Source: Escherichia coli
GTDB taxonomy: Bacteria > Pseudomonadota > Gammaproteobacteria > Enterobacterales > Enterobacteriaceae
Strand: one strand, 5' to 3'
NCBI RefSeq assembly: GCF_024700885.2
Contig: NZ_CP117016.1
DNA length: 64,000 nt
Made by a program: the position numbers and the translations under genes
The notes under the pieces: model-generated
Seen by the model: only the letters and a program-made list of their open reading frames with translations
What the model was told of the DNA's origin: nothing
Databases searched by the model: none
Shown: piece after piece, positions 18,202 to 35,830 of the stretch
How the letters are laid out: every line of letters starts with the position of its first letter
How positions within the stretch are numbered: the first letter of the stretch is position 1

Positions 18202-18945
18202 ATGACCACACCAAATCCACTGGCAAAAACGAAAGGTGCGGGAACGACGTTCTGGATGTACACCGGCAAGGGCGATGCGTTTGCGAACCCTTTATCGGAC
18301 ACTGACTGGCTGCGTCTTGCGATGGTGAAGGATCTGCAACCTGGCGAAATGACCGCTGATGCAGAAGATGACACTTATCTCGATGATGAAGATGCAGACT
18401 GGAAAACGACAACCCAGGGGCAGAAATCCGTCGGTGATACTTCGGCGACGCTGGCCTGGCGTCCGGGTGACAGCGGACAGAAAAAACTGGTTCAGTTGTT
18501 CGACTCCGGTGAAGTCTGCGCGTTTCGTATCAAATATCCCAACGGCACTGTTGATGTTTTCCGTGGCTGGCTGAGCTCACTGGGTAAAACCATTGCCTCA
18601 AAAGACGTGATGACCCGCACCGTGAAAATCAGCGGTGTGGGGCGTCCGTATCTGGCAGAGGAAGGCACTGAAACAGTGAGCGTTACCGGGCTGACGGTGG
18701 CACCGGCATCTGCCAGTGTAAAAGTGGGAGCAACCACCACGCTGACCTTTACAGTAAAACCTGACGGAGCCAGTGACAAAGCGATCAGTGTGCATTCGAC
18801 AGATCCACAGACTGCCACGGTGACCCTGAACGGGCTTGTGGCCACGGTGAAAGGCGTGAAGCAGGGCAGTGTCAGCATTGTGGGCATGACTTCTGACGGC
18901 GATTTTGTGGCAGTGGCTGCGGTGGCTGTCAGCGCCGCAGGTTAA
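18202..18945 (+). CDS. Major tail protein V with C-terminal Ig-like domain
   Basis: RBS AGGAGGTGG; gpV-like N-terminal region; C-terminal Big_2-like segment (VTGLTVAPASASVKVGATTTLTFTVKP). Confidence 0.8.
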   Translation: MTTPNPLAKTKGAGTTFWMYTGKGDAFANPLSDTDWLRLAMVKDLQPGEMTADAEDDTYLDDEDADWKTTTQGQKSVGDTSATLAWRPGDSGQKKLVQLFDSGEVCAFRIKYPNGTVDVFRGWLSSLGKTIASKDVMTRTVKISGVGRPYLAEEGTETVSVTGLTVAPASASVKVGATTTLTFTVKPDGASDKAISVHSTDPQTATVTLNGLVATVKGVKQGSVSIVGMTSDGDFVAVAAVAVSAAG

Positions 18946-18966
18946 CAGGACGCTACTCATCATTTG

Positions 18967-18990
18967 CCCCGGTTATCCGGGGCTTTTTTG
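18967..18990 (+). terminator. Hairpin plus T-run between V and G (partial terminator candidate)
   Basis: CCCCGGttatCCGGGG followed by CTTTTTTG. Confidence 0.5.
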
Positions 18991-19005
18991 CAGGTGGAGA
19001 ACATG

Positions 19006-19392
19006 ATGTTTCTGAAACAGGGCACGTTTAATTATGAAAAGCAGTCCGTGGTGCTCAGTGAGCTGTCCGGGCTGCAGAGAATTGAATATCTGGCGTTTGT
19101 TCAGCAGCGAACGGCAAAGTTTGATGCCGAAGAGGGAGAACTGCCGGAGGCTGAACGACAGATTGCTTTTCTGCGGATGGGGATGGATATCAATGCCTGG
19201 CTGGTTTCCCGCTCACTGTGGAATGCGGAACAGTCTCAGGATGTTGAGACGCTTTGCGCATCCGTTATTACAACATGGTCGTATGATGCCCTGGGAGCGG
19301 GGGCGGAGATGGTTCTGTCGCTGAGCGGTATGGGAGCCATTGAGAATGCCGGGGATTTGGAGCATGAGGTGCTGACGCCGGAAAAGTCCTGA
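19006..19392 (+). CDS. Tail assembly chaperone G
   Basis: MFLKQ...VVLSELSGLQRIEYLAF parallels the lambda G N-terminus (MFLKTE...VTLSELSALQRIEHLAL). Confidence 0.7.
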   Translation: MFLKQGTFNYEKQSVVLSELSGLQRIEYLAFVQQRTAKFDAEEGELPEAERQIAFLRMGMDINAWLVSRSLWNAEQSQDVETLCASVITTWSYDALGAGAEMVLSLSGMGAIENAGDLEHEVLTPEKS

Positions 19393-19730
19393 CGCGGGAA
19401 ATGCAGTTTGTCATGCGGCTTGCCCGGGAGTTCCGGCGGGCAGACTGGCGGCGGATGCTGTCGGAAATGTCGGCCACTGAGCTTGGTGAGTGGGGCGATT
19501 ATTTCCGGATGCAGAGCTTCAGTGATGTGTGGATGGATGCGCAGTTTGCCTCGCTGAAGGCATTGATCGTGAGAATGGTGTCCGGTAGCAGTGATGCTGC
19601 GGTGGCTGATTTCAGCCTTTTACCGGAAGAGAACGGGATACCGGAGCGAACGGACGAAGAACTGATGCATCTTGGGGAAGGTATTTCCGGAGGTGTGCGT
19701 TATGGACCAGATAGCCAACCTGGTCATTGA
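19006..19730 (+). CDS. Tail assembly chaperone GT (G-T fusion by -1 programmed frameshift near 19380-19386)
   Basis: T-frame ORF is open in the -1 frame across the end of G; candidate slippery heptamer GGAAAAG just before the G stop. Confidence 0.5.
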
Positions 19731-22700
19731 TTTGGGGATTGATGCGGCAGAGTTTAAAAATGAAATTCCCCGTATCAAAAACCTTCTGAATGGTGCAGCC
19801 AGCGATGCAGAACGGTCTTCTGCCCGTATGCAGCGTTTTATGGAGCGTCAGACTCAGGCCGCCCGGCAGACAATGCAGGCGGCTTCTTCGGCTGCAACAG
19901 CCGCATCCGTCCATGCGCAGACGGTGGAGAAGAGCGCACAGGCTCATGAACGCATGGCCCGCGAGGTGGAGCAAACCCGCCAGCGTATGGAGGCACTGAG
20001 CCAGAAAATGCGCGAGGAACAGGCGCAGGCCATGGCTCTGGCGGAGGCTCAGGATAAAGCGGCTGCCGCGTTTTATCGTCAGATTGACAGTGTGAAACAG
20101 GCCAGTGCGGGGCTGCAGGAATTACAGCGTATTCAGCAGCAGATCCGACAGGCCAGAAACAGTGGCGGGATTGGTCAGCAGGATTATCTGGCGCTGATTT
20201 CTGAGGTTACGGCGAAAACCCGTGTTCTTACGCAGGCTGAGGCAGAGGCTACCCGACAGAAAGTGGCGTTTATCCGTCAGCTTAAAGAGCAGGCAACCCG
20301 CCAGAATCTTTCTTCTTCTGAGTTGCTTCGTGCTAAGGCTGCCCAGCTGGGGGTAAGCAGTGCTGCAGAAGTGTATATCCGCAAAATGGAGCAGGCAGGA
20401 AAAGCCACACATTCGCTGGGTCTGAAAAGTGCAGCGGCCCGCCAGGAGATAGGCGTTCTGATAGGTGAACTGGCTCGCGGCAATTTAGGTGCGCTGAGGG
20501 GATCCGGGATAACGCTGGCTAACCGTGCCGGATGGATAGACACACTGATGTCACCGAAAGGCATGATGCTGGGCGGGGTTATTGGCGGTATTGCCGCGGC
20601 CGTCTATGGTCTGGGTAAAGCCTGGTATGATGGTCAGAAGGAGGGGGAAGAATTTAACCGCCAGTTGTCGCTGACGGGGCATTATGCCGGAGTCACTGCC
20701 GGGCAGCTGTGGACGCTCAGTCGTGCTATTTCCGGGAATGGTATTACGCAACATGCTGCAGCCGGTGCGCTGGCTCAGGTGGTGGGGAGTGGTGCATTTC
20801 GTGGAAACGATATCGGTATGGTGGCGAGAGCTGCCGCACAGATGGAGCGATCGGTTGGCCAGTCGGTCAGCGATACCATAAATCAGTTTAAGCGGCTGAA
20901 GGATGATCCTGTAAATGCCGCGAAGGCTCTGGACAATGAGCTGCATTTTCTTACTGCCACTCAGCTTGAGCAGATACGCGTCCTTGGGGAACAGGGGCGG
21001 TCCAGTGATGCGGCACGGATAGCCATGTCTGCACTGGCAGAGGAAACCGGTCGGCGTACTGCGGATATTGATAATAACCTCAATGCGCTGGGCAGTACGC
21101 TGAAGTATCTGTCTGATTTATGGAGTCGTTTCTGGGATGCGGCCATGAATATTGGTCGTGAAGACTCGCTGGATGAACAGATTGCCGCTTTACAGGAGAA
21201 AGTGTCGCGGGCGAAAAGACTCCCCTGGACGGCATCATCTTCTCAGGTTGAATACGATCAGCAGCGTCTTAACGATCTTCAGGAGAAAAAACGCCAGAAG
21301 GATTTGCAGGATGCAAAAGAGCAGGCAGAGCGGAATTATCAGGAGCAACAGAAACGCCGTAATGCTGAAAATGCTGCACTGAACCGGATGAATGAAACGG
21401 AAGCAGCACGACATCAGCGTGAAATTGCGCGTATTAATGCCATGCAGTACGCCGATCAGGCTGTCAGGGATGCGGCGATACAACGTGAAAATGAACGTTA
21501 CGAGAAAGCCCTGGCATCCGGTAAGAAAAAAACACGCGAACCCCGTAATGATGAGGCCACCCGGTTATTGCTGCAGTACAGTCAGCAACAGGCACAGGTG
21601 GAAGGACAGATTGCTGCTGCCAGACAGTCAGCAGGCATTGCCACGGAAAGGATGACAGAAGCGCATAAACAGCTTCTGGCTCTGCAGCAGCGCATCAGCG
21701 ACCTGGACGGGAAAAAACTGACGGCAGATGAAAAGAGTGTGCTGGCCCGTAAAGATGAACTGATTCAGGCACTGACGCTGCTGGATGTAAAACAGCAGGA
21801 GCTTCAGAAACAGACGGCACTCAACGAGCTGAAGAAAAAAACAATTCAGCTGACCAGTCAACTGGCTGAAGAAGAGCGCGCTCAGCGTCAGCAACATGAC
21901 CTGGATATCGCCACGGTGGGTATGGGTGATCAGCAGCGGCAGCGATATCAGGTACAACTGAGTCTTCGCCAGAAATACCAGCAACAGCTGGAGCAGTTGA
22001 GGCGGGATAGTGAGCAGAAAGGAACATATAACACGGATGACTACAGAAAGGCCGAGCAGGCGCTGACGGAGAGCCTGAACCGACAACTGAATGAGAATCG
22101 CCGTTACTGGCAACAGCTTGAAGTTGTGCAGGGTAACTGGAAAAACGGAGTCCTGCGTGCATTTCAGGATTTTACCGTGGATGCAGATAATACGGCAGGA
22201 ACAGCAGAACAGGTGTTCTCGTCAGCCTTCAGCAACATGGGAAATGGCCTGGCAACTTTTGTCACTACCGGCAAACTCAATTTCAAATCCTTCACCTCTT
22301 CTGTGCTGTCAGATATGGCGAAAATCCTGGCGCAGGCAACCATGATGAAATCGATAAAAGGGATTGGCAGTGTACTGGGATTTGATCTCAGCAGCCTTTC
22401 CCTGAATGCCAATGGGGGGATTTATCAGTCTGCTGATTTGAGTCGTTACAGTGGCACGGTGGTTAACCGTCCGACGTTTTTTGCTTTTGCAAAAGGCGCG
22501 GGTGTGATGGGGGAAGCTGGACCTGAAGCCATTCTGCCACTGCGTCGTGATGCTGACGGTAAGCTGGGGGTTGTGGCGGATATTGGTGGTTCAGGTATGG
22601 CGATGTTTGCCCCGCAGTACAACATAGAGATCAATAACGATGGCACGAACGGGCAGATAGGTCCGGCTGCCCTGAAGGTGGTTTATGACCTCGGGAAAAA

Positions 22701-22767
22701 AGCAGCAGCGGACTTTATGCAACAGCAGGCCCGTGATGGTGGTCGGTTAAGTGGAGCATATCGGTAA
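19702..22767 (+). CDS. Tail tape measure protein H
   Basis: 1021 aa, coiled-coil-rich Ala/Gln/Arg sequence; RBS GGAGG; position after G/T. Confidence 0.85.
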   Translation: MDQIANLVIDLGIDAAEFKNEIPRIKNLLNGAASDAERSSARMQRFMERQTQAARQTMQAASSAATAASVHAQTVEKSAQAHERMAREVEQTRQRMEALSQKMREEQAQAMALAEAQDKAAAAFYRQIDSVKQASAGLQELQRIQQQIRQARNSGGIGQQDYLALISEVTAKTRVLTQAEAEATRQKVAFIRQLKEQATRQNLSSSELLRAKAAQLGVSSAAEVYIRKMEQAGKATHSLGLKSAAARQEIGVLIGELARGNLGALRGSGITLANRAGWIDTLMSPKGMMLGGVIGGIAAAVYGLGKAWYDGQKEGEEFNRQLSLTGHYAGVTAGQLWTLSRAISGNGITQHAAAGALAQVVGSGAFRGNDIGMVARAAAQMERSVGQSVSDTINQFKRLKDDPVNAAKALDNELHFLTATQLEQIRVLGEQGRSSDAARIAMSALAEETGRRTADIDNNLNALGSTLKYLSDLWSRFWDAAMNIGREDSLDEQIAALQEKVSRAKRLPWTASSSQVEYDQQRLNDLQEKKRQKDLQDAKEQAERNYQEQQKRRNAENAALNRMNETEAARHQREIARINAMQYADQAVRDAAIQRENERYEKALASGKKKTREPRNDEATRLLLQYSQQQAQVEGQIAAARQSAGIATERMTEAHKQLLALQQRISDLDGKKLTADEKSVLARKDELIQALTLLDVKQQELQKQTALNELKKKTIQLTSQLAEEERAQRQQHDLDIATVGMGDQQRQRYQVQLSLRQKYQQQLEQLRRDSEQKGTYNTDDYRKAEQALTESLNRQLNENRRYWQQLEVVQGNWKNGVLRAFQDFTVDADNTAGTAEQVFSSAFSNMGNGLATFVTTGKLNFKSFTSSVLSDMAKILAQATMMKSIKGIGSVLGFDLSSLSLNANGGIYQSADLSRYSGTVVNRPTFFAFAKGAGVMGEAGPEAILPLRRDADGKLGVVADIGGSGMAMFAPQYNIEINNDGTNGQIGPAALKVVYDLGKKAAADFMQQQARDGGRLSGAYR

Positions 22768-23096
22768 TGGAGACGTTTCACTGGAAAGTGCGCCCGGATA
22801 TGAATGTGGTATCAGAGCCGAAAGTGGTGACAGTGAAGCTGGGCGATGGTTATGAACAGCGTCGTGCGGCGGGACTGAATAACCAGTTGTCGACTTACAG
22901 CGTGACGATACGTGTTCGTAAATGTGAACACCCATCTTTAAAAGCCTTTCTGGAACGGCACAGTGGCGTCCGCGCATTTCAGTGGACGCCACCTTATGAC
23001 TGGAAGCCGATCAGGGTGGTTTGTCGTAAATGGTCGGCAAGCGTGGGGGCGCTGTGGGTAACCATAACGGCAGATTTTGAACAGGTCGTGGCATAG
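22767..23096 (+). CDS. Minor tail protein M
   Basis: 109 aa, lambda gpM-like size and position. Confidence 0.8.
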   Translation: METFHWKVRPDMNVVSEPKVVTVKLGDGYEQRRAAGLNNQLSTYSVTIRVRKCEHPSLKAFLERHSGVRAFQWTPPYDWKPIRVVCRKWSASVGALWVTITADFEQVVA

Positions 23097-23105
23097 GAGG
23101 CCCTG

Positions 23106-23804
23106 ATGCAGGATATTCCACAGGAAACACATCATGAGACGACACGCCTCACTCAGTCAGCCCAGGTGGTGCTCTGGGAAATCGATCTGACAGAGGTCGG
23201 TGGTGAACGTTATTTTTTCTGTAATGAGCAGAACGAAAAAGGTGAGCCGGTCACCTGGCAGGGGCGGCAGTATCAGGCATACCCCATTCAGGGGACAGGA
23301 TTTGAACTGAACGGCAAGGGCAGTGCTGCCCGTCCGACACTGACGGTTTCTAACCTGCACGGTATGGTCACCGGTATGGCGGAAGATCTGCAGAGTCTGG
23401 TCGGCGGAACGGTGGTCCGGCGTAAGGTTTACGCCCGTTTTCTGGATGCGGTGAACTTCGTCAACGGAAACAGTGATGCCGACCCGGAGCAGGAGGTGAT
23501 CAGCAGCTGGCGCATCGAGCAGTGCAGTGAACTGAGTGCGGTCAGTGCTTCTTTTGTACTGTCCACGCCGACGGAAACGGATGGCGCTGTTTTTCCGGGG
23601 CGTATCATGCTGGCCAACACCTGCACCTGGACCTATCGCGGTGATGAGTGCGGTTATAACGGTCCGGCTGTCGCGGATGAATATGACCAGCCGACGTCCG
23701 ATATCACGAAGGATAAATGCAGCAAATGCCTGAGCGGCTGTAAGTTTCGCAATAACGTCGGCAACTTTGGCGGTTACCTTTCCATTAACAAACTTTCGCA
23801 GTAA
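23106..23804 (+). CDS. Minor tail protein L
   Basis: 232 aa with C-terminal Cys cluster (CTWTYRGDECGY...CSKCLSGCKFRNN) as in lambda L. Confidence 0.8.
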   Translation: MQDIPQETHHETTRLTQSAQVVLWEIDLTEVGGERYFFCNEQNEKGEPVTWQGRQYQAYPIQGTGFELNGKGSAARPTLTVSNLHGMVTGMAEDLQSLVGGTVVRRKVYARFLDAVNFVNGNSDADPEQEVISSWRIEQCSELSAVSASFVLSTPTETDGAVFPGRIMLANTCTWTYRGDECGYNGPAVADEYDQPTSDITKDKCSKCLSGCKFRNNVGNFGGYLSINKLSQ

Positions 23805-23809
23805 ATCCC

Positions 23810-24553
23810 ATGACAGAGACAGAATCAGCGATTCTGGCGCACGCCCGGCGATGTGCGCCAGCGGAGTCGTGCGGCTTCGTGGTGAGAACGCCGGAGGGAG
23901 AAAGATATTTTCCCTGCGTGAATATCTCCGGTGAGCCGGAGGCGTATTTCCGGATGGCTCCGGAGGACTGGCTGCGGGCAGAAATGCAGGGTGAGATTGT
24001 GGCGCTGGTCCACAGTCACCCCGGTGGTCTGCCCTGGCTGAGTGAGGCCGATCGGCGGCTGCAGGTGCAGAGTGATTTGCCGTGGTGGCTGGTCTGCCGC
24101 GGGGCGATTCACAAGTTCCGCTGTGTGCCACATCTTACCGGGCGGCGCTTTGAGCACGGGGTGACGGACTGTTACACGCTGTTCCGGGATGCATACCATC
24201 TGGCGGGAATTGAGATGCCGGATTTTCATCGCGGAGATGACTGGTGGCGTAACGGCCAGAATCTCTATCTTGACAATATGGAGGCGACTGGTTTTTACCG
24301 TGTCGCACTGACAGAGGCGCAGCCGGGCGATGTGCTGCTGTGCTGTTTTGGTTCATCGGTGCCGAATCATGCCGCCATTTACTGTGGTGATGGCGAGCTG
24401 CTGCACCATATTCCTGAACAACTGAGCAAACGAGAGAGGTATACCGACAAATGGCAGCGACGCACACACTCCCTCTGGCGTCACCGGGCATGGCACGCAT
24501 CTGCCTTTACGGGGATTTACAACGATTTGGCCGCCGCATCGACCTTCGTGTGA
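23810..24553 (+). CDS. Tail assembly protein K (JAB/MPN + NlpC/P60)
   Basis: JAMM motif VALVHSHPGG...SEAD and NlpC/P60-like Cys/His region (DCYTLF...HAAIY). Confidence 0.8.
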   Translation: MTETESAILAHARRCAPAESCGFVVRTPEGERYFPCVNISGEPEAYFRMAPEDWLRAEMQGEIVALVHSHPGGLPWLSEADRRLQVQSDLPWWLVCRGAIHKFRCVPHLTGRRFEHGVTDCYTLFRDAYHLAGIEMPDFHRGDDWWRNGQNLYLDNMEATGFYRVALTEAQPGDVLLCCFGSSVPNHAAIYCGDGELLHHIPEQLSKRERYTDKWQRRTHSLWRHRAWHASAFTGIYNDLAAASTFV

Positions 24554-25098
24554 AAACGGGGGCTGAAGCCATCCGGGCGCTGGCCACGCAGCTTCCGTCG
24601 TTTCGCCAGAAACTGAATGAGGGCTGGTATCAGGTGCGCATTGCCGGGCGTGATGCAGGCGAAAATGAATTATCTGCCCGTCTTAATGAGCCGCTGGAAA
24701 ATGGTGCCGTGATTCACATCGTGCCGCGTATGGCGGGAGCTAAAAGTGGCGGTGTGTTTCAGGTGGTGCTGGGGGCGGCGCTGATTGCGGTGGCATGGTG
24801 GAACCCTGTGGGCTGGCTGGGTGCTGCGGCTGTATCGGGCATGTATGCGGCAGGGGCCAGTATGATTCTGGGTGGTGTGGCCCAGATGCTGGCACCGAAA
24901 GCCAGGACGCCCACGGCAGCCAGTACAGATAACGGCAAACAGAACACCTATTTCTCCTCACTGGATAACATGGTTGCTCAGGGCAATGTTCTGCCTGTTC
25001 TGTACGGTGAAATGCGTGTGGGGTCGCGGGTGGTTTCTCAGGAGATCAGCACGGCAGACGAAGGTGACGGTGGTCAGGTTGTGGTGATTGGTCGCTGA
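24451..25098 (+). CDS. Tail assembly protein I
   Basis: MAATHTLPLASPGMARICLYGDLQRFGRRIDLRV... and C-terminus ...NGKQNTYFSSLDNMVAQGNVLPVLYGEMRVGSRVVSQEI match lambda I; overlaps K as in lambda. Confidence 0.75.
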   Translation: MAATHTLPLASPGMARICLYGDLQRFGRRIDLRVKTGAEAIRALATQLPSFRQKLNEGWYQVRIAGRDAGENELSARLNEPLENGAVIHIVPRMAGAKSGGVFQVVLGAALIAVAWWNPVGWLGAAAVSGMYAAGASMILGGVAQMLAPKARTPTAASTDNGKQNTYFSSLDNMVAQGNVLPVLYGEMRVGSRVVSQEISTADEGDGGQVVVIGR

Positions 25099-25158
25099 TG
25101 CAAAATGTTTTATGTGAAACCGCCTGCGGGCGGTTTTGTCGTTTATGGAGCATGACGA

Positions 25159-28100
25159 ATGGGTAAAGGCAGCAGTAAGGGGCATACCCCGCGCGAAGCG
25201 AAGGACAACCTGAAGTCCACGCAGTTGCTGAGTGTGATCGATGCCATCAGCGAAGGGCCGGTTGAAGGTCCGGTGGATGGGTTAAAAAGCGTGCTGCTGA
25301 ACAGTACGCCGGTGCTGGACAGTGAGGGGAATACCAATATCTCCGGTGTCACGGTGGTGTTCCGGGCAGGTGAGCAGGAGCAGACACCGCCGGAGGGGTT
25401 TGAATCCTCCGGTTCCGAGACGGTGCTGGGTACGGAAGTGAAATATGACACGCCGATCACCCGCACCATCACGTCGGCAAACATCGACCGTCTGCGCTTT
25501 ACTTTCGGCGTGCAGGCACTGGTGGAAACCACCTCAAAGGGTGACAGGAATCCGTCGGAAGTCCGTCTGCTGGTTCAGATACAACGTAACGGTGGCTGGG
25601 TGACGGAAAAAGACATCACCATTAAGGGCAAAACCACCTCGCAGTATCTGGCCTCGGTGGTGGTGGATAATCTGCCGCCGCGCCCGTTTAATATCCGGAT
25701 GCGCAGGATGACGCCGGACAGCACCACAGACCAGCTGCAGAACAAAACGCTCTGGTCGTCATACACCGAAATCATCGATGTGAAACAGTGCTACCCGAAC
25801 ACGGCACTGGTCGGCGTGCAGGTGGATTCGGAGCAGTTCGGCAGCCAGCAGGTGAGCCGTAATTATCATCTTCGCGGGCGCATTCTGCAGGTGCCGTCGA
25901 ATTATAACCCGCAGACGCGGCAATACAGCGGTATCTGGGACGGAACGTTAAAACCGGCATACAGCAACAACATGGCCTGGTGTCTGTGGGATATGCTGAC
26001 CCACCCGCGCTACGGCATGGGGAAACGTCTTGGTGCGGCAGATGTGGATAAATGGGCGCTGTATGTCATCGGCCAGAATTGCGACCAGTCAGTGCCGGAC
26101 GGCTTTGGCGGCACGGAGCCGCGCATCACCTGTAATGCGTACCTGACCACACAGCGCAAGGCGTGGGATGTGCTCAGTGATTTCTGCTCGGCGATGCGCT
26201 GTATGCCGGTATGGAACGGGCAGACGCTGACGTTCGTGCAGGACCGACCGTCGGATAAGGTGTGGACCTATAACCGCAGTAATGTGGTGATGCCGGATGA
26301 TGGCGCGCCGTTCCGCTACAGCTTCAGCGCCCTGAAGGACCGCCATAATGCCGTTGAGGTGAACTGGATTGACCCGAACAACGGCTGGGAGACGGCGACA
26401 GAGCTTGTTGAAGATACGCAGGCCATTGCCCGTTACGGTCGTAACGTCACGAAGATGGATGCCTTTGGCTGTACCAGCCGGGGGCAGGCGCACCGCGCCG
26501 GGCTGTGGCTGATTAAAACGGAACTGCTGGAAACGCAGACCGTGGACTTCAGCGTGGGTGCGGAAGGGCTTCGCCATGTACCGGGGGATGTCATTGAAAT
26601 CTGCGATGATGACTATGCGGGTATCAGCATCGGCGGGCGCGTGCTGGCGGTGAACAGCCAGACCCGGACGCTGACGCTCGACCGTGAAATCACGCTGCCA
26701 TCCTCCGGTACCACGCTGATAAGCCTGGTTGACGGAAGTGGCAATCCGGTCAGCGTGGAGGTCCAGTCCGTCACCGACGGCGTGAAGGTAAAAGTGAGCC
26801 GTGTTCCTGACGGCGTTGCCGGATACAGCGTGTGGGGGCTGAAGCTGCCGACGCTGCGCCAGCGCCTGTTCCGCTGCGTGAGTATCCGTGAGAACGATGA
26901 CGGCACGTATGCCATCACCGCCGTGCAGCATGTACCGGAAAAAGAGGCCATCGTGGATAACGGGGCGCACTTTGACGGCGACCAGAGCGGCACGGTGAAT
27001 GGTGTCACGCCGCCAGCAGTGCAGCATCTGACCGCCGAAGTCACTGCAGACAGCGGGGAATATCAGGTGCTGGCGCGATGGGACACGCCGAAGGTGGTGA
27101 AGGGCGTGAGCTTCCTGCTTCGCCTGACCGTGGCAGCGGATGACGGCAGTGAGCGGCTGGTCAGCACGGCCCGGACGGCGGAAACCACATACCGCTTCAC
27201 GCAACTGGCGCTGGGACGGTACACGCTGACAGTCCGGGCGGTAAATGCGTGGGGACAGCAGGGCGATCCGGCGTCGGTATCGTTCAGGATTGCCGCACCG
27301 GTAGCACCGTCGCGGATTGAGCTGACGCCGGGCTATTTTCAGATAACTGCCACGCCGCATCTTGCGGTTTATGATCCGACGGTACAGTTTGAGTTCTGGT
27401 TCTCGGAAAAGCGGATTGCGGATATCAGGCAGGTTGAAACCACAGCCCGCTATCTTGGCACGGCGCTGTACTGGATAGCTGCCAGTATCAATATCAAACC
27501 GGGCCATGATTATTATTTTTACATCCGCAGTGTGAACACCGTTGGCAAATCGGCATTTGTGGAGGCTGTTGGCCAGCCGAGTGATGATGCATCCGGCTAT
27601 CTGGATTTTTTCAAAGGCGAGATAGGGAAAAGCCATCTGGCTCAGGAGCTGTGGACGCAGATTGATAACGGTCAGCTTGCGCCTGACCTGGCTGAAATCA
27701 GGACGTCCATTACGGATGTCAGCAATGAAATCACGCAGACCGTCAATAAGAAACTGGAAGACCAGAGTGCGGCAATTCAGCAGATACAGAAGGTTCAGGT
27801 TGATACAAATAATAACCTGAACAGCATGTGGGCTGTGAAGCTGCAGCAGATGCAGGACGGACGCCTTTATATCGCGGGTATTGGTGCCGGTATTGAGAAC
27901 ACCCCTGACGGCATGCAGAGTCAGGTGCTGCTGGCGGCGGACAGGATTGCGATGGTTAATCCTGCGAATGGCAACACAAAGCCGATGTTTGTTGGTCAGG
28001 GCGATCAGATATTCATGAACGAAGTGTTCCTGAAATATCTGACGGCTCCCACCATTACCAGCGGCGGTAATCCTCCGGCATTTTCCCTGACACCGGACGG

Positions 28101-28638
28101 GCGGCTGACGGCGAAAAATGCCGATATCAGCGGTAGCGTGAATGCGAACTCCGGGACGCTCAACAACGTCACGATTAACGAGAACTGTCGGGTTCTGGGA
28201 AAACTGTCCGCGAACCAGATTGAAGGCGATCTCGTTAAAACAGTGGGCAAAGCTTTCCCCCGGGACTCCCGTGCACCGGAGCGGTGGCCATCAGGGACCA
28301 TTACCGTCAGGGTTTATGACGATCAGCCGTTTGACCGGCAAATTGTTATTCCAGCGGTGGCTTTCAGCGGTGCCAGACATGAACGGGAGAATAGCGATAC
28401 TTATTCGTCATGCCGCCTGATAGTGAAGAAAAACGGGGCTGAAATTTATAACCGAACGGCTCTGGATAATACTCTGATTTACACGGGTGTTATTGATATG
28501 CCTGCAGGCAGTGGCGTAATGACACTGGAGTTTTCTGTATCAGCATGGTGGGTAAATGGCTGGTATCCCACAGCAAGTATCAGCGATTTGCTGGTTGTTG
28601 TGATGAAGAAAGCCACTGCAGGCATCACGATTAGCTGA
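25159..28638 (+). CDS. Host specificity / central tail fibre protein J
   Basis: 1159 aa, lambda J-like size and position. Confidence 0.85.
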
Positions 28639-28656
28639 ATTTTATAACCCAGATAC

Positions 28657-28684
28657 GGGCGCCAGAAATGGCGCCTTTTTTATT
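28657..28684 (+). terminator. Rho-independent terminator after J
   Basis: GGCGCCagaaatGGCGCC followed by TTTTTTATT. Confidence 0.6.
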
Positions 28685-28705
28685 GCAGAAAAGCGAGAGG
28701 TAATT

Positions 28706-29305
28706 ATGCGTAAATTATGTGCTGTTATTCTGTCCACAGTAGTCTGGCTGGTCGCCGCTGGTACGCCAGCGAGCGCAGCAGAGCATCAGTCCACACTAAG
28801 CGCCGGGTATCTTCAGACCCATACTGATATGCCCGGCAACGATGACCTGAAGGGCATTAACGTGAAATACCGTTATGAATTTACGGACACGCTGGGGCTG
28901 GTGACGTCATTCAGTTATGCCAATGCCAAAGATGAGCAAAAAACGCATTACAGCGATACCCGCTGGCATGAAGATTCAGTGCGTAACCGCTGGTTCAGCA
29001 TGATGGCGGGGCCGTCTGTACGCGTGAATGAATGGTTCAGTGCTTATGCGATGGCAGGTGTGGCTTACAGCCGTGTTTCGACTTTTTCCGGGGATTATCT
29101 CCGCGTAACTGACAGCAAGGGGAAAACGCACGATGTGCTGACCGGAAGTGATGACGGTCGCCACAGCAACACGTCTCTGGCGTGGGGGGCTGGCGTGCAG
29201 TTTAACCCGACCGAATCCGTGGCCATTGATATTGCTTATGAAGGCTCCGGCAGTGGTGACTGGCGCACTGACGGTTTCATCGTGGGTGTCGGTTATAAAT
29301 TCTGA
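28706..29305 (+). CDS. lom: Lom outer-membrane protein (Ail/Lom family)
   Basis: Signal peptide then beta-barrel pattern, C-terminal aromatic residue (GVGYKF). Confidence 0.8.
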   Translation: MRKLCAVILSTVVWLVAAGTPASAAEHQSTLSAGYLQTHTDMPGNDDLKGINVKYRYEFTDTLGLVTSFSYANAKDEQKTHYSDTRWHEDSVRNRWFSMMAGPSVRVNEWFSAYAMAGVAYSRVSTFSGDYLRVTDSKGKTHDVLTGSDDGRHSNTSLAWGAGVQFNPTESVAIDIAYEGSGSGDWRTDGFIVGVGYKF

Positions 29306-29331
29306 TTAGCCAGGTAACACAGTGTTATGAC

Positions 29332-29358
29332 AGCCCGCCGGTTCAGGCGGGCTTTTTT
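29332..29358 (+). terminator. Rho-independent terminator after lom
   Basis: AGCCCGCCggttcaGGCGGGCT followed by TTTTTTG. Confidence 0.6.
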
Positions 29359-29369
29359 GTGGAGTGGAT

Positions 29370-31769
29370 ATGGCAGCAGTAAAAATCTCAGGTGTGCTGA
29401 AAGATGGTGCGGGAAAACCAATACAGAACTGCACTATTCAACTGAAGGCAAAGCGTAACAGCACCACGGTACTGGTGAACACGGTGGCCTCTGAAAATCC
29501 TGATGAAGCCGGGCGTTACAGCATGGATGTTGAGTATGGCCAGTACAGCGTCACCCTGCTGGTTGAAGGTTTTCCGCCTTCACATGCCGGGACCATTACC
29601 GTCTATGAAGGCTCCAGACCAGGTACGCTGAATGATTTTCTCGGTGCCATGACGGAAGATGATGTCATGCCGGAGGCATTGCGTCGTTTTGAGGCAATGG
29701 TGGAAGAAGTGGCACGCAACGCCGAAGCCGCCTCTCAGAGCGCAGCGGCGGCAAAGAAATCCGAAACTGCAGCGGCATCATCAAAGAACGCGGCGAAAAC
29801 CTCAGAAACGAATGCAGCTAATAGTGCACAGGCGGCAGCGACCTCAAAGACTGCATCGGCAAACTCCGCGACAGCAGCCAAAAAATCAGAAACCAACGCG
29901 AAAAATAGCGAGACAGCCGCAAAGACGAGCGAAACCAACGCAAAGTCCAGCCAGACGGCAGCGAAAACCAGCGAAACGAATGCCAAAGCCAGTGAAACTG
30001 CGGCAAAAAACAGCCAGGTTGCAGCAGCCCAAAGCGAGAGCGCGGCAGCCGGTTCTGCGACTTCAGCAGCTGGATCAGCAACTGCTGCGGCTAACAGCCA
30101 GAAAGCTGCGAAGACGAGTGAAACTAACGCAAAGTCCAGCCAGACGGCAGCGAAGACCAGCGAAACGAATGCCAAAACCAGCGAAACTGCGGCGAAAAAC
30201 AGTCAGGATGCAGCAGCCCAAAGCGAGAGTGCCGCAGCTGGTTCTGCAAGTGCGGCGGCTTCTTCTGCCACTGCATCAGCCAACAGTCAAAAAGCTGCAA
30301 AAACCAGTGAAACCAACGCAAAGGCGAGCGAGACTGCGGCGGCTAACTCGGCGAAAGCATCCGCTGCAAGCCAGACGGCAGCTAAAGCAAGTGAAGATGC
30401 AGCCAGAGAGTACGCAAGCCAGGCTGCGGAGCCGTATAAACAAGTTTTGCAGCCGCTTCCCGATGTGTGGATACCGTTTAACGATTCACTGGATATGATT
30501 ACGGGCTTTTCGCCGTCATATAAAAAGATTGTTATTGGTGATGATGAAATAACGATGCCTGGCGATAAGGTTGTAAAGTTTAAACGCGCATCAACTGCCA
30601 CATATATCAATAAATCAGGCGTATTTAGTGTTGCTAAAATTGATGAGCCACGATTTGAAAAAGAAGGTTTATTGATTGAAGGACAGCGCACTAACTATTT
30701 TGTTAAATCCAATATCCCCGCTGAATGGACGAGTACCAGCAATATCGATAAAACTAATAATGGTGTTGATGAATTTGGTTTTTCATATGCCAAAATGCGA
30801 ACAAAAGATAATATGACAGGACAATCATCTGCACTTAGTCTGCATACATGCAGTGCATCCCGGGGGATTGATGTTAGTGGCGATAATAAGTATTGCACTG
30901 TTTCATGCAGGGTTAAAGCTCCTGATGGTCTTCGTTGTCGTTTGCGTTTTGAAAAATACGATGGGTCGGTTTATACATTTTTAGGAGATGCTTATTTAAC
31001 TTTCGGAACTCTGATAATAGAAAAAACTGGCGGAGCAGCCAATAGAATAGCAGCTACTGCAACTAAAGATCCGGTTACAGGGTGGATTTTCTATGAGGCA
31101 ACTATAGAAGCTGTTGAAGGTGAAACCTTAATTGGCGCAATGATTCAGTATGCGCCGAAAAAAGGTGGTGTAACTGAAGCGGGAGATTATATTTACCTTG
31201 CAACACCACAATTTGAAAACGGCGGATGTGCTTCATCTTTTGTTATTACGACAACTGTACCCGCAACCCGCTCCAGTGATATGGTGACGATCCCAACTGA
31301 AAATAATATCTATAATAGACCGCTTACGTGCCTGGTCGAGGTTAATAGAAATTGGGGCGATATTCCTCCTAATGTAGCACCGCGTATTTTTGATTTTTCT
31401 GGTGTGCCACCTATTGAGTCAATTACATACGCTTTTAACACAACTGAGAAATATTACGGTCAGCTTTATATGCAAACTTATAAAGCGTCGACAAGTACTT
31501 ACGTTTCTAGTGTGTTTGCTGGTCGAACTGATGTTCGAAAATTCATTGGTGGTTTTAATATTTATTCTGATGGTACTAAACGAGTAGTTTCTAACGGTGA
31601 GGCTACTAAAACTATGAAAACGGAGTGGACGGGCGTAAAAACACGGACCTTTATTCGAATTGGAGGTCAAGCCACATCGGGAACTCGTCATCTATTCGGC
31701 CATTTGAGAAATCTTCGTCTCTGGCATAAAGAATTAACTGATGCGCAAATGGGGGAGAGTATTAAATGA
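29370..31769 (+). CDS. Side tail fibre protein with repetitive Ala/Lys/Thr/Ser shaft and low-GC C-terminal domain
   Basis: N-terminal conserved tail-fibre start (AAVKISGVLKDGAGKPIQNCTIQLKA); repeats AAKTSETNAK; C-terminal ~400 aa markedly AT-rich. Confidence 0.7.
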   Translation: MAAVKISGVLKDGAGKPIQNCTIQLKAKRNSTTVLVNTVASENPDEAGRYSMDVEYGQYSVTLLVEGFPPSHAGTITVYEGSRPGTLNDFLGAMTEDDVMPEALRRFEAMVEEVARNAEAASQSAAAAKKSETAAASSKNAAKTSETNAANSAQAAATSKTASANSATAAKKSETNAKNSETAAKTSETNAKSSQTAAKTSETNAKASETAAKNSQVAAAQSESAAAGSATSAAGSATAAANSQKAAKTSETNAKSSQTAAKTSETNAKTSETAAKNSQDAAAQSESAAAGSASAAASSATASANSQKAAKTSETNAKASETAAANSAKASAASQTAAKASEDAAREYASQAAEPYKQVLQPLPDVWIPFNDSLDMITGFSPSYKKIVIGDDEITMPGDKVVKFKRASTATYINKSGVFSVAKIDEPRFEKEGLLIEGQRTNYFVKSNIPAEWTSTSNIDKTNNGVDEFGFSYAKMRTKDNMTGQSSALSLHTCSASRGIDVSGDNKYCTVSCRVKAPDGLRCRLRFEKYDGSVYTFLGDAYLTFGTLIIEKTGGAANRIAATATKDPVTGWIFYEATIEAVEGETLIGAMIQYAPKKGGVTEAGDYIYLATPQFENGGCASSFVITTTVPATRSSDMVTIPTENNIYNRPLTCLVEVNRNWGDIPPNVAPRIFDFSGVPPIESITYAFNTTEKYYGQLYMQTYKASTSTYVSSVFAGRTDVRKFIGGFNIYSDGTKRVVSNGEATKTMKTEWTGVKTRTFIRIGGQATSGTRHLFGHLRNLRLWHKELTDAQMGESIK
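29740..30330. repeat. Coding tandem repeats in tail fibre gene
   Basis: Two imperfect ~200-bp tandem units (about 29920-30110 and 30122-30310) plus shorter ~24-bp sub-repeats encoding AAKTSETNAK. Confidence 0.6.
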
Positions 31770-32047
31770 AAGATTTAACACTCAAATTTGCAGACAGGGC
31801 CGACTTTTCGGCCTTTATGGAGAGTATTGGCTATTATGATGACGAGTCGATGCAGGATGATATTCTTATTGACGTGATAGGTAACGTGTACAAAGAAACC
31901 GGAGAACTGACTGAAGATGGCGAACCGGTATGTGTTAAGGAAGACGGATATTTTGTAAACGTGCGCATCATTAATGATGTGAAAACACCGTCAATATTCG
32001 ATGAATACGTGGTTGCTGTTGAGCATCAACTTCGTGGCTGGATGTGA
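31766..32047 (+). CDS. Hypothetical acidic protein in tail-fibre module
   Basis: 93-aa ORF, start overlaps stf stop, AT-rich. Confidence 0.3.
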   Translation: MKDLTLKFADRADFSAFMESIGYYDDESMQDDILIDVIGNVYKETGELTEDGEPVCVKEDGYFVNVRIINDVKTPSIFDEYVVAVEHQLRGWM

Positions 32048-32056
32048 GGAAGAAAA

Positions 32057-32761
32057 ATGGCTACATCGACAGTAATTCCAGGAGATATCACCACGCTAAA
32101 GGGAGATGTCAGTAAAACTAAGGAAGATATTTCCTCAATTAACGGAAAAGTATCAACGCTTCAGACTGATATGACCAGTGCAAAGCAGGATATCAGCACC
32201 AGATACACAAAAACTGAAGTTGATAATAAGCTGAAAAACAAAGTGGAAGTGAACGATCTGGAAAGTGGTCGTTATGGCGGAGATTTTTATCCACTGACAG
32301 GTCGTGAAGCGTTTTATTTATGGAATTTGGCCACGACTACAGCGGCGGCAAACCTTTATCTTAATCCTGACCCCGCAATTTCGTCTGTGCTGCGGTCAAC
32401 ATCGTCTATCCGCTATAAACATTCAGTAGAGACAATAGATTCAGAGCACGCTGATCTCATTTTCAGGATGCGCCCTGTGTGGTACAGGTCACAATGCGAA
32501 AATGACAGGCGTGACTGGGGATTCTACGGATTGATTGCCGAGGAAGTAGGAGAAATTGCCCCTCAGTTTGTACACTGGCGACCAGCTAACGAAGATGATG
32601 CTCCTGAAGCTATTTCCAGCAATGGCCTTGTTGCCGAAGGTGTAATGTACGAACGTCTGGTTGTTCCACTGATTCACCATATCCAGAAGCTGACTGAAAG
32701 AGTTGATGAACTTGAGTCAGAATTAAAGTTGTTATTAACTTCCCGAAGCGATATCGGATAA
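32057..32761 (+). CDS. Tail-fibre-type protein with S74-like intramolecular chaperone domain
   Basis: N-terminal coiled coil then S74-like segment (SSIRYKHSVETID...MRPVWY...DWGFYGLIAEEVGEIAPQFVH...LVAEGVMYERLVVPLIHHIQKL). Confidence 0.5.
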   Translation: MATSTVIPGDITTLKGDVSKTKEDISSINGKVSTLQTDMTSAKQDISTRYTKTEVDNKLKNKVEVNDLESGRYGGDFYPLTGREAFYLWNLATTTAAANLYLNPDPAISSVLRSTSSIRYKHSVETIDSEHADLIFRMRPVWYRSQCENDRRDWGFYGLIAEEVGEIAPQFVHWRPANEDDAPEAISSNGLVAEGVMYERLVVPLIHHIQKLTERVDELESELKLLLTSRSDIG

Positions 32762-32771
32762 AGGAGGAATA

Positions 32772-33059
32772 ATGGATATAACACCTTTCCTTCATGCACT
32801 TTGTGCTGTGGCTGCGCAGGTACTGGTTGGTCTTTTTACCGGAAACTGGGCTTACGGGGCGATAGCCGGTTGTACGTTCTTCATTGCGCGTGAACACACC
32901 CAGGCAGAATATCGCTGGATCGAAATGTTCGGGCATGGCAAGCGAATGAATATGCCGTGGTGGGGCGGTTTTGATACACGTGCATGGGATGTGGCAAGCC
33001 TGATGGATTTTGCTGTGCCGGTGGTGGCGTGTCTGCTGATCTGGCTGTTGATCCGTTAA
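32772..33059 (+). CDS. Small membrane protein, unknown function
   Basis: 95 aa with 2-3 hydrophobic segments; RBS AAGGAGG. Confidence 0.3.
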   Translation: MDITPFLHALCAVAAQVLVGLFTGNWAYGAIAGCTFFIAREHTQAEYRWIEMFGHGKRMNMPWWGGFDTRAWDVASLMDFAVPVVACLLIWLLIR

Positions 33060-33061
33060 AT

Positions 33062-33110
33062 ATAAAAAGCCGCAGTAACTTGCCATGGCAGGATACTGCG
33101 GCTGGTTTGT
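33062..33110. terminator. Bidirectional terminator between tail-fibre module and RT gene
   Basis: 10-bp stem AGCCGCAGTA/TACTGCGGCT (33068-33103) with A-run before and T-rich run after. Confidence 0.45.
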
Positions 33111-33166
33111 GAGTTTAAATAGTGTGTTTATTGCGGTATATTTAAAGGACTTAATGGATTACATAT

Positions 33167-34537
33167 CTATGATATTCCTGAGATATCCTCTTCAAGCTCT
33201 TTTACTGATTTCGCAATTTTAAATTTAAACTTCCTCTCTATTTCACTATTGCTAAGTTTTTTTTCCTTCTCTTTACCTATCCACATAGAAACAAGTTCTC
33301 GTTTCTGAGATATATGTAAATTATCAAAGTTAGGTATGTATTTAAAAGTCTCCGCTCTACCTCTGCGGAGTTCATAGAAAGTTTTAATCAAAGACTTTGG
33401 TTTTATTTCTGATGAAAGGCCGAATCGGTGGATAAGATTATTGATAGTATGATTAACAGAGCGAAGTTGAGCTGTTGAGGTTATTTGTGAGAAGTACGAT
33501 ACCCATCCCAATCGTTTACCTTCAAACACACATCCCGTAATTCTGAGATTTAGTTTCCACTGACAATATGCAACAGCTCGTTCTTTATCACGCTTACTTT
33601 TAGCTTGTAGTAGAGCGTGCCTGTATGCAGTAAAAATCCTTGCTAAAGATGACTCAAATCTAAGAATGCTCTCATGTTTTATCAATAATTCTCGATTTTC
33701 TATGTGGTATCCCAAAAAGTTAAAACTTTCATCCAAGCTGCCTACTTTGGATTTTGAGTTCTCTTCATTTAATGGATGTGGGTTTAAATTTAATGATTGA
33801 AGCTTATCAATGATATGAGAAGCTATTTTTGTTGCTTGATATTTTGGTGTTAAAATAAGAATGTCATCAACGTATCGCATGTACCATATGTCATGCATTT
33901 TATTGATTTCATCATCAAAATTAGATAGTGATATTTCAGCTAAAATGTTTGATATCGCTAATCCCTGAGGTACCCCTCTGGTATTATTCGGGATACCTTT
34001 GCTTCCTGTTGTTCCACTTACAGTAGGCACGATTAATGATGATGTTATTAACTGTCTAATTTCTTTTTTTCTAATTTTATTTTTTATTGTATTAATTATC
34101 AATTTATGTTCAATTGAAGGATAGAAACTTTTAAGATCTATTTTTGCATATTCAGCATAAAGACTGCTGTTTAATGCTTCTTTCAATGAGTCAATTACTG
34201 TATGTGGTAGTTTTAATCTGGAGTTAGGATATATTTCCGTAAGGCATTCACAGAGAGTTCTAAGAGTAATTCTGTCCCTAGCAGTTGGTATGGAAATCTG
34301 TCTGGGTGTAGAGTTAGCGCCTTTAGATATTAATTTTTCTTTATATGCTGTAAATTTGTAATTGCCAGAGTTAACCTTTTCAAAAATGAAAGCGATCTCA
34401 TTTTTTATTGTCAAATCAAGTTTTGATGGGCGAATCCGATCTATGCCAATCGCTCCTGATTCTTTGATTTTTTCAGTGTATACTTTTAGAAGGTTTTTTT
34501 TCGAGAATGACTTTTTAAAAATTCTGCTTGCAGTCAT
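33167..34537 (-). CDS. Reverse transcriptase (defence-associated type, unclassified)
   Basis: Ordered RT motifs: RQISIPTARDRITLRTL, KIDLKSFYPSIEH, GVPQGLAISNILAEISLS, YMRYVDDILIL, FNFLGYHI; ~30% GC; alternative TTG start at 34543. Confidence 0.8.
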   Translation of the reverse strand: MTASRIFKKSFSKKNLLKVYTEKIKESGAIGIDRIRPSKLDLTIKNEIAFIFEKVNSGNYKFTAYKEKLISKGANSTPRQISIPTARDRITLRTLCECLTEIYPNSRLKLPHTVIDSLKEALNSSLYAEYAKIDLKSFYPSIEHKLIINTIKNKIRKKEIRQLITSSLIVPTVSGTTGSKGIPNNTRGVPQGLAISNILAEISLSNFDDEINKMHDIWYMRYVDDILILTPKYQATKIASHIIDKLQSLNLNPHPLNEENSKSKVGSLDESFNFLGYHIENRELLIKHESILRFESSLARIFTAYRHALLQAKSKRDKERAVAYCQWKLNLRITGCVFEGKRLGWVSYFSQITSTAQLRSVNHTINNLIHRFGLSSEIKPKSLIKTFYELRRGRAETFKYIPNFDNLHISQKRELVSMWIGKEKEKKLSNSEIERKFKFKIAKSVKELEEDISGIS

Positions 34538-35066
34538 AGTCAATCCAAAGATATATTAATGGGAGTATATAAAGGGCGGCAGTAGTAAATATTCGAAGTA
34601 ATATCCATAAAATAACAATTATTTTTTCTTTTTGTGTGGGGATCCTCGTCGTAAGTCCAACTTGAGTTACCCTTGAAATTTTATCATCTATGTCACGGTG
34701 ATTCTCAACCTCATTGAGCAAATTAAAATATTTTTCTTTCTGTTCAAGAGTTAACTGTTGACTGGTGGTAATGTCAAAATAGAGTCGCTGTAGTGCAATA
34801 TAATTCCTTCTCATGGCTATTGCTCGACCACGAAAATCTAGGTTAGATACGATCAGCGAAATACCCAGTAGGGCCACCGAAAGTATTGCCGCAACGATAT
34901 CTGTGTTATCTCCTAGAACTTTTGGAAATCGCAACGTTACAATTGAAAGTACCGCACTCAATATAGCATACCAAACGAGGATAAATTGAGAGTGCTTTTC
35001 AAGCCATTCTAGTCGATGGTGCGCTTGGATACGGGCTTTATATGTAAACCAAATATTGTCATGCAT
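34515..35066 (-). CDS. Small multi-TM membrane protein, candidate effector partner of RT
   Basis: 183 aa; hydrophobic helices FILVWYAILSAVLSIVTL, IVAAILSVALLGISLIVSNL, IIVILWILLRIFTTAALYILPLIYLWI; 3' end overlaps RT start; RBS AAGGA. Confidence 0.6.
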   Translation of the reverse strand: MHDNIWFTYKARIQAHHRLEWLEKHSQFILVWYAILSAVLSIVTLRFPKVLGDNTDIVAAILSVALLGISLIVSNLDFRGRAIAMRRNYIALQRLYFDITTSQQLTLEQKEKYFNLLNEVENHRDIDDKISRVTQVGLTTRIPTQKEKIIVILWILLRIFTTAALYILPLIYLWIDYDCKQNF

Positions 35067-35288
35067 AAAAGATCCTTTTTAAAAGCGGAAGGGGCAGGAT
35101 ATATTGGAATCATTGAACATCCTGCCCGGCAGGATCAGTGAGCATAAGCTCAACAGTAAAATATTACTGTTCATTATCAGAGCCGCCCTTGCATGCACAA
35201 GAGGAAAAACCTGCCCCATCCTTTTGAATTATTACAATTTAATGATCTTAAAGTCAATACAAGTGAATGGTGTCCAGAGATGATGAAC
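35067..35288 (-). promoter_or_regulatory. Structured leader upstream of membrane-protein/RT operon
   Basis: Three copies of GGGGCAGG/CCTGCCCC in alternating orientation; hairpin ending ~25 nt before start codon. Confidence 0.3.
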
Positions 35289-35537
35289 TTAATGAACAAA
35301 CCACTCGTCAGCAGACTCCCAGGTATCTTTCAGAGTTTCCTGAACAAAAGTTTTAGCTGAATCTTTATCGGCGGTGCGCGTAACAGAAAGGCCATCGTTG
35401 CTGGTGGCTTTTACGATCACCTCTACATCGTCATAACGCTTACTGATGCGTCGAGTTAATTCTTCCTTTAACGCATCCACAGCACCGCTTGGCATTTTAG
35501 TCATTTTCTCTTTAGCTATGCAGATCTCAATACGCAT
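35289..35537 (-). CDS. DinI-like protein
   Basis: 82 aa; MRIEI...AKEK...LPAGA-DAL--EL-RRI...[10 protein letters not shown] pattern of the DinI family. Confidence 0.75.
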
Positions 35538-35550
35538 AAAAATCCCTCTA

Positions 35551-35598
35551 CACTGTGTTTGTATACAGTGTTATTTTTAACTGTATGAATAAACAGTG
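35551..35598 (-). promoter_or_regulatory. Two tandem LexA (SOS) boxes in dinI-like promoter
   Basis: CACTGTgtttgtatACAGTG (35551-35570) and AACTGTatgaataaACAGTG (35579-35598), both CTGT-N8-ACAG, 14-61 nt upstream of the start codon. Confidence 0.6.
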
Positions 35599-35617
35599 TC
35601 AATAGAACAAAGATTGC

Positions 35618-35740
35618 TGCATGTACAAATGTTCTTTGGCTACAAATACACCTACTGATCATGTTCTGCTATGCTCTGATACCTCCAAAATGTACAATCA
35701 GCGGCATGAATTTTTCTTTGTACATATGATTGTACATAAT
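35618..35740. repeat. TGTACA hexamer array in phage-derived prfC upstream region
   Basis: TGTACA at 35622, 35691, 35719, 35731; last two as direct repeat TTGTACATA separated by 3 nt. Confidence 0.4.
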
Positions 35741-35756
35741 TAAAGAGACAACAATT

Positions 35757-35830
35757 ATGACAAGCCTTTTGGCCGCAGAGGTAGCGAAAAGAAGAACCTT
35801 TGCAATTATTTCTCACCCGGACGCCGGTAA
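35757..35830. other. Inferred attR / prophage-chromosome junction within 5' end of prfC
   Basis: prfC N-terminus reads [15 protein letters not shown], differing from the canonical RF3 N-terminus as I recall it, then converges on conserved sequence. Confidence 0.4.

Follow-up and report, generated by a model that had tools for sequence, protein, structure and literature searches.

In the Escherichia coli DNA analysed here, a 64,000-nucleotide stretch of contig NZ_CP117016.1 hereafter called the window, a lambdoid prophage occupies the 5' end of prfC, the gene coding for release factor RF3, and very probably rebuilds the part of the gene that it displaces. A phage of the mEp460/Ayreon/cdtI type would have integrated at prfC codons 18-22 through site-specific recombination catalyzed by its tyrosine recombinase. 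Directly left of a 14-bp core, the phage attP holds its own Shine-Dalgarno-like sequence and 16 codons, ATG included, imitating the RF3 N-terminus. The attR junction consequently consists of an uninterrupted hybrid prfC whose product is unlike native RF3 only at residues 3-8, and the attL junction of the native promoter-like site and a 22-codon prfC stub pointing into int. The hybrid gene would be transcribed from within a phage arm of ~210 bp and give a functional RF3. We estimate the probability of this overall reading, i.e. integration followed by expression of a functional RF3 from a phage-supplied 5' end, at roughly 85%. It is carried by three junction sequences, a contiguous attP in free phages, an intact open reading frame and the prevalence of the arrangement, all of them direct observations. 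The arrangement itself is already known: it is frequent in E. coli and has been reported both in these phages and in the SXT resistance element.

The hybrid prfC is read on the + strand from the ATG at 35757 to the stop codon at 37343 and codes for an RF3 of 528 residues, with 16 phage codons followed by host codons from the core onward. An earlier note on this DNA had pointed out that the protein departs from the canonical RF3 N-terminus and is conserved afterwards. The native prfC of the prophage-free strain BL21(DE3), located directly after yjjG and coding for 529 residues, does read as given there. Global alignment of the two proteins confines their differences to native residues 3-8, where one deletion and four substitutions are found; in the 1525 nt past the core the 25 differences from BL21 are all silent. 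The hybrid protein reached 1089.6 bits against the TIGR00503 prfC model (cut-off 466.95) and is thus full-length, residues 6-528 being aligned. Since the natural RF3 N-termini in these data vary widely in length and sequence and the family model begins to align at residue 6 only, the replaced residues belong to a part of RF3 that tolerates change. UniProt lists the exact hybrid protein as RF3_ECOK1, and it is encoded on at least 1000 contigs. The gene was called essential in the earlier note, which does not hold: ΔprfC strains of E. coli are viable and routinely used, including as a recipient strain (PMC2791158), and prfC is described as non-essential by Ogura 2007 (PMC2323221).

The recombination site was delimited by a three-way alignment of attB (BL21), attL (E. 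coli MLI114) and attR (the window). The only stretch common to the three is the 14-bp core ATTATTTCTCACCC at 35805..35818 on the + strand, which encodes I-I-S-H-P of the G1 motif and within which strands are exchanged. Positions 1..5569 of the window align to MLI114 (NZ_CP117013.1) with 0 mismatches, and given this identity the attL of MLI114 is the true partner of the attR in the window. In MLI114, the far side of the element shows yjjG, a 69-nt 'partial' CDS that corresponds to the prfC stub and the gene for a 405-residue tyrosine recombinase, prfC lying at the other side. The matching core that the earlier note expected at the integrase end is therefore located: it stands beside int, which lies 230 bp from it outside the window, behind a native prfC stub of 22 codons ending in IISHPNN and a stop. 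The attL thus keeps the native 5' end. A distance of 44.8 kb separates the two core copies, which puts attL ~9 kb left of the window start. Left of the core, the DNA in the window is phage, and right of it, host. The phage share of prfC comprises the Shine-Dalgarno-like site, the ATG and 15 more codons (35757..35804). Aligning the region with prophage-free prfC, as had been proposed, places the identity break at the core; phage DNA does not end at about 35760, as first estimated, but reaches 35804, with the crossover within 35805..35818. A breakpoint near 35777 given by megablast was rejected, as it reflects extension of the alignment through the partly similar phage-borne sequence.

When the left side of the window is joined to the int side of attL, the attP thus predicted matches an unbroken stretch of the free phages Ayreon, 2H10 and cdtI at 97-99% identity. 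In these genomes, the imitation of the prfC 5' end forms a 23-codon open reading frame that ends in IISHPNN and a stop. This mimic (ATG and 15 codons, 35757..35804, + strand) is absent from attB and attL. Records of Stx2c and Stx1a phages annotate the same 14 bp as the insertion duplication, and their attR sequence is identical, mimic included. The proposed integration of a prophage in the prfC 5' end is hence borne out by a core common to attB, attL and attR and by an attP that is contiguous in free phages.

The distribution of both junction types was determined in 5426 complete E. coli genomes. A probe for the phage-host junction was covered in 698 of them and a probe for the native unoccupied site in 4717, which together leave ~11 genomes. 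The places matched by the native probe outnumbered the records by 710, as would be the case with an attL and an attR in every lysogen. A third junction type, suggested by a hit in O26 strain RM8426, was discarded: it is ordinary native prfC with a shorter alignment. The clean split between native and hybrid 5' ends indicates that the prophage arrangement is not due to chance. The earlier note had named prophage-free strains bearing the MTSLLAAE N-terminus as the observation that could overturn it, and the unoccupied sites, all 4717, have the native 5' end contiguous with yjjG. The same count bears on the proposition that MTSLLAAE is an ordinary chromosomal allele of prfC, or the product of gene conversion, unrelated to the prophage. 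RF3_ECOK1 is indeed catalogued simply as RF3 with no remark on a hybrid origin, but MTSLLAAE is found with the phage arm upstream, and free phage genomes contain the identical sequence in continuity with the int side. The att alignment, the native sites and the free-phage attP already refute such an allele, whose probability is close to nil. A prfC prophage is moreover a core element of the CC119 lineage (PMC10132054) and is thus carried long-term.

The prophage covers 1..35804 of the window, i.e. the right-hand 35.8 kb of its 44.8 kb. A lambda-like module for head, tail and lysis makes up its body, and the structural genes present in the window are 95-97% identical to those of the lambda-like phages PhiR55_1, mEp460, Ayreon and cdtI. 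The integrase shares 100% identity with the Ayreon enzyme and 99% with the cdtI enzyme; it contains the Pfam domains Arm-DNA-bind_3 (residues 3-90), Phage_int_M and Phage_integrase. By its structural module, integrase and attP, the element belongs to the mEp460/Ayreon/cdtI-type lambdoid temperate phages. It also displays the features of the prfC-targeting module of the 'SXT cluster': a recombinase with an N-terminal DUF4102/Arm-DNA-bind_3 and a catalytic domain encoded beside attL, insertion at the I-I-S-H-P(-D) codons of the prfC 5' end with a short duplicated core, an in-frame element-borne replacement of the 5' coding sequence and a contiguous attP. A side-tail-fibre-like open reading frame for 801 residues (29364..31769, + strand) contains a long Ala/Ser/Thr/Lys-rich repetitive stretch (AAKTSETNAK repeats) that generates long spurious reading frames in the other frames and on the opposite strand.

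The genes upstream of prfC were correctly taken for phage cargo. Two genes on the - strand (33167..35066), identified with PADLOC and NCBIfam, constitute defence cargo: one codes for a reverse transcriptase of class UG17, the other for a membrane protein of the SLATT type. The reverse transcriptase (458 residues, PADLOC RT_UG17, E = 2e-158) overlaps the 183-residue SLATT protein (RTasSLATT, E = 8e-57; NCBIfam SLATT_5). Next to them, a cargo gene at 35289..35537 (- strand), divergent from prfC, is referred to only as DinI-like since its NF007893 score (73 bits) falls under the equivalog cut-off. Its promoter-like sequence TTGACA-18-AAAAAT is overlapped by two LexA boxes (35553..35568 and 35581..35596), which on direct reading are both perfect CTGT-N8-ACAG. 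The second adjoins the conserved arm of the att site and lies ~160 bp before the start of the hybrid prfC. The block of reverse transcriptase, SLATT, dinI and prfC is found in 187 of the 5426 complete E. coli genomes. At the opposite end of the prophage, beside int in MLI114 and outside the window (L002 10818..12950), a 710-residue CHAT-domain protein matches PADLOC BovA (Borvo) at 802 bits and represents a second defence cargo. In strain FDAARGOS_536, with the same attL, attR and reverse transcriptase cargo, the integrase is annotated as a pseudogene with an internal stop (L154 4697..5920). Probably, the prophage of this strain is fixed in place and its prfC relies for good on the 5' end derived from the phage.

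The phage side of attR is a conserved arm (35593..35804, + strand) that is near-invariant among phages with differing cargo. When the reconstructed attP was aligned to Ayreon, 2H10, cdtI and a Stx2c phage, the arm identity started at ACAGTGTCAATAG, also in cases such as Ayreon with unrelated cargo upstream. The arm contains TGTACA boxes at 35622..35627 and 35691..35696, followed by a tandem pair, GTACA-N7-GTACA, 12 bp apart (35719..35736), 25-37 nt upstream of the ATG. The window has 11 copies of TGTACA, roughly as many as expected by chance; four of these are gathered in the 115 bp of 35622..35736, and the int side of attP has additional ones. By analogy with phage lambda and in view of the Arm-DNA-bind_3 domain of the integrase, these boxes are putative arm-type Int sites. 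The layout of GTACA-N7-GTACA, ~20 nt and ATG recurs in about ten diverged attP or attR sites, including an SXT-like one (L039). Direct reading of the phage DNA places a Shine-Dalgarno-like AAGAG at 35743..35747 (+ strand), 9 nt before the ATG, in a region predicted to be unpaired.

What the phage supplies for expression is only partly apparent. The earlier note had credited it with a new N-terminus and a promoter; the ribosome-binding site, the start codon and the 16 codons are phage-borne, and the promoter is deduced from position, no convincing sigma-70 site being visible. In the native locus, the yjjG-prfC spacer contains the promoter-like sequence TTGCCT-16-TAAAAT (weight-matrix score 11.3). 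In the lysogen, this site stays at attL, 44.8 kb away from the hybrid gene. There (MLI114, L002 14520..14690), the native site and the 22-codon stub point into int ~230 bp off, and no terminator-like site was seen between them and int. The gene closest to the hybrid prfC on its upstream side (dinI-like) is divergent, and no co-directional reading frame ends nearer than 2.7 kb, so that any transcription of the hybrid gene must start in phage DNA. Consensus scans of 35200-35900 and 32700-35800 returned no + strand sigma-70-like site with 9/12 matches near the gene. The best weight-matrix score in the arm was 6.3 (TTTTCT-17-CATAAT), a value matched or exceeded in 35% of random 238-nt windows, and an Rfam scan of 35000-36000 gave nothing meaningful. 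CATAAT at 35735 was dismissed as a promoter: across the family it is conserved no further than the GTACA box itself provides. Among the E. coli phages, the arm is so nearly identical that no covariation separates a promoter from a recombination function. Identifying the arm promoter with P_int of the excised phage finds no support in the SXT precedent: there, int is served by a separate promoter on the int side, Ps003, which depends on SetCD. A discrete promoter inside 35593..35756 is somewhat favoured.

These negative scans lend weight to the suggestion that the hybrid gene is silent, its reading frame intact but its promoter lost, with little or no expression tolerated since RF3 is dispensable. 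Bobay 2013 (PMC3603311) lists prfC among the genes 'disrupted' by prophages, and Ogura 2007 calls the transcription and translation of prfC in such lysogens unknown. In another system, dusA is expressed less after integration of a dusA element than in element-free cells (bioRxiv 10.1101/2021.06.18.448947). A silent gene should nevertheless decay, and the hybrid reading frame is intact, its differences from BL21 past the core being silent without exception and its exact product recurring on the many contigs mentioned above. The amino acids of the mimic are conserved in spite of eight nucleotide changes, every diverged lineage has an in-frame, ATG-initiated mimic, and SXT inserted at the same site does drive prfC. 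Silencing is accordingly judged improbable. We infer expression of the hybrid prfC from its intact reading frame, the protein-level conservation of the mimic, the long-term carriage of the prophage and the SXT and dusA precedents; RF3 being dispensable, the intact frame is a weaker proof than it would be for an essential gene.

The mimic provides the clearest trace of constraint. Over codons 8-16 (EVAKRRTFA), phage and host differ at 8 of 27 nucleotides, all synonymously, and none of 300,000 random placements of eight substitutions kept the peptide. The likeness therefore reflects a constraint at the protein level and not a need of recombination for DNA homology. A degenerate pattern for a ten-residue RF3 motif matched 65 viral contigs, among which in-frame mimics that start with ATG stand before the same core in several nucleotide versions unrelated to one another; the integrases of mimic-bearing contigs range from 99% down to 32% identity to the prophage integrase. 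Three IMG/VR contigs (L039/L040, L042/L043 and L061/L062) have two prfC-type sites each, i.e. a stub or attP together with an attR. A profile scan of GTDB species representatives collected 80 relatives of the integrase, 20 of which are encoded 199-237 bp downstream of a prfC stub. Relatives near a prfC stub or mimic (~200-240 bp) were found in Escherichia, Trabulsiella, Pantoea, Xenorhabdus, Serratia, Pseudomonas, Shewanella, Microbulbifer, Methylobacter and Marinomonas, each of these lineages having its own ATG-initiated in-frame mimic. No evident SXT/R391 element was present among the 80 GTDB loci.

The mimic could instead be a historical by-product, for example a prfC 5' end captured from another host through imprecise excision, and kept by its position between arm and core without selection. 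Compared with Pseudomonas RF3 N-termini, which open with MT[NKRH] (L085-L090, L139), the mimic has 11 contiguous residues in common, versus 9 with E. coli, which fits capture of a foreign prfC; the near-invariance of the arm among E. coli phages also makes recent selection unmeasurable there. Yet lineages whose integrases are only 32-83% identical keep the start codon, the frame and the residues with different nucleotides, which is hard to achieve without selection on the fused product. Passive retention is for this reason very improbable. Capture as an origin and maintenance by selection are not mutually exclusive. Pseudomonas genomes have integrases of 51-52% identity at their own prfC, and the likeness may hint at the origin of the att module.

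A further idea, that integration rewires the control of RF3 instead of merely preserving prfC, appears doubtful. The native promoter-like site and a structured initiation region would be swapped for an arm with no recognisable sigma-70 site. The phage initiation region would be open and AT-rich, the arm lying amid putative Int arm sites with two LexA boxes at a distance of ~160-200 bp, and the host prfC promoter-like site would read into int. The native initiation region (BL21, L001 2941..3021) folds strongly (-29.4 kcal/mol, z = -2.5, none of 200 shuffles as stable), its 5' UTR GCGCGGCGC pairing with codons 12-15. In the phage version (window 35720..35800), CGC CGC is replaced by AGA AGA, and the Shine-Dalgarno sequence and ATG are left unpaired. 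Possibly, a translational control of prfC is lost in lysogens. If rewiring were true, RF3 dosage and perhaps the level of int would be set by prophage DNA and prophage state in ~13% of E. coli strains, which could influence how faithfully translation terminates and how stable the prophage is.

The literature already contains the integration site with its 14-bp duplication, the change of the RF3 N-terminus, the kinship with SXT and the removal of the native ribosome-binding site and promoter. Under the preferred reading, in which the phage rebuilds an expressed prfC, about one E. coli genome in eight would express RF3, if at all, from phage-supplied signals. Since the prfC reading frame is rebuilt, surveys that score the gene as 'disrupted' misdescribe the outcome of integration. 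The prfC module spans Gammaproteobacteria, is common to phages and integrative conjugative elements (ICEs) and constitutes a clean example of 5'-end restoration.

Several lambdoid phages are known at prfC: a Stx1 phage of O103 (Ogura 2007, PMC2323221), Stx1a and Stx2c phages of CC119 (PMC10132054), Ayreon, 2H10 and, as cited in PMC8138268, the cdtI phage (Asakura 2007). [quoted passage not shown] The prophage of the window resembles these phages in its integrase (99-100% identical to those of cdtI and Ayreon), its 14-bp duplication and its attR with mimic. It differs from them in cargo only, namely the UG17 reverse transcriptase, SLATT and DinI-like genes in place of stx or cdt.

The SXT/R391 ICEs are reported to insert at the same prfC codons (Hochhut & Waldor 1999). 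Their 17-bp attP consensus ATcATcTCtCACCCtGA overlies the 14-bp phage core in the same register (PMC9058013). Smyshlyaev et al. 2021 placed the cdtI phage integrase and IntSXT, which belong to the same domain family, in one cluster inserting at prfC. In IMG/VR, a published SXT junction primer matched locus L039 exactly and so revealed an SXT-like attP; an SXT/R391-like ICE end is thus filed there among 'viral' contigs. Its layout is that of the phage, with GTACA-N7-GTACA, ~20 nt, an ATG-initiated mimic, the core, ~230 bp and int. Its integrase, however, is only 31.5% identical to the phage integrase and its mimic peptide, MANQDFLNEINKRRTFA, is unlike that of the phage. SXT/R391 elements are conjugative elements and not phages, and of the two it is SXT for which a promoter in this arm has been reported experimentally. 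The prophage thus works like SXT at the prfC site and yet is not an SXT/R391 element: it lacks the nearly identical IntSXT that defines the family (PMC2791158), and its body is a lambda-like module instead of a conjugative transfer backbone.

Similar solutions exist at other genes. The dusA elements (e.g. IMEVchUSA3) likewise target the 5' end of a conserved gene and were shown by lacZ fusion to provide a new N-terminus and a new promoter (bioRxiv 10.1101/2021.06.18.448947). Target gene and integrase are different from those at prfC, and it is in the dusA system that expression after integration was measured. The icd prophages (e14, phage 21) also carry a copy of the displaced gene part that keeps the reading frame intact (PMC3603311). 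These phages duplicate the 3' end of their target and leave its promoter, ribosome-binding site and start codon untouched, in contrast with the prfC prophage, which replaces the 5' end so that all expression signals would be phage-derived.
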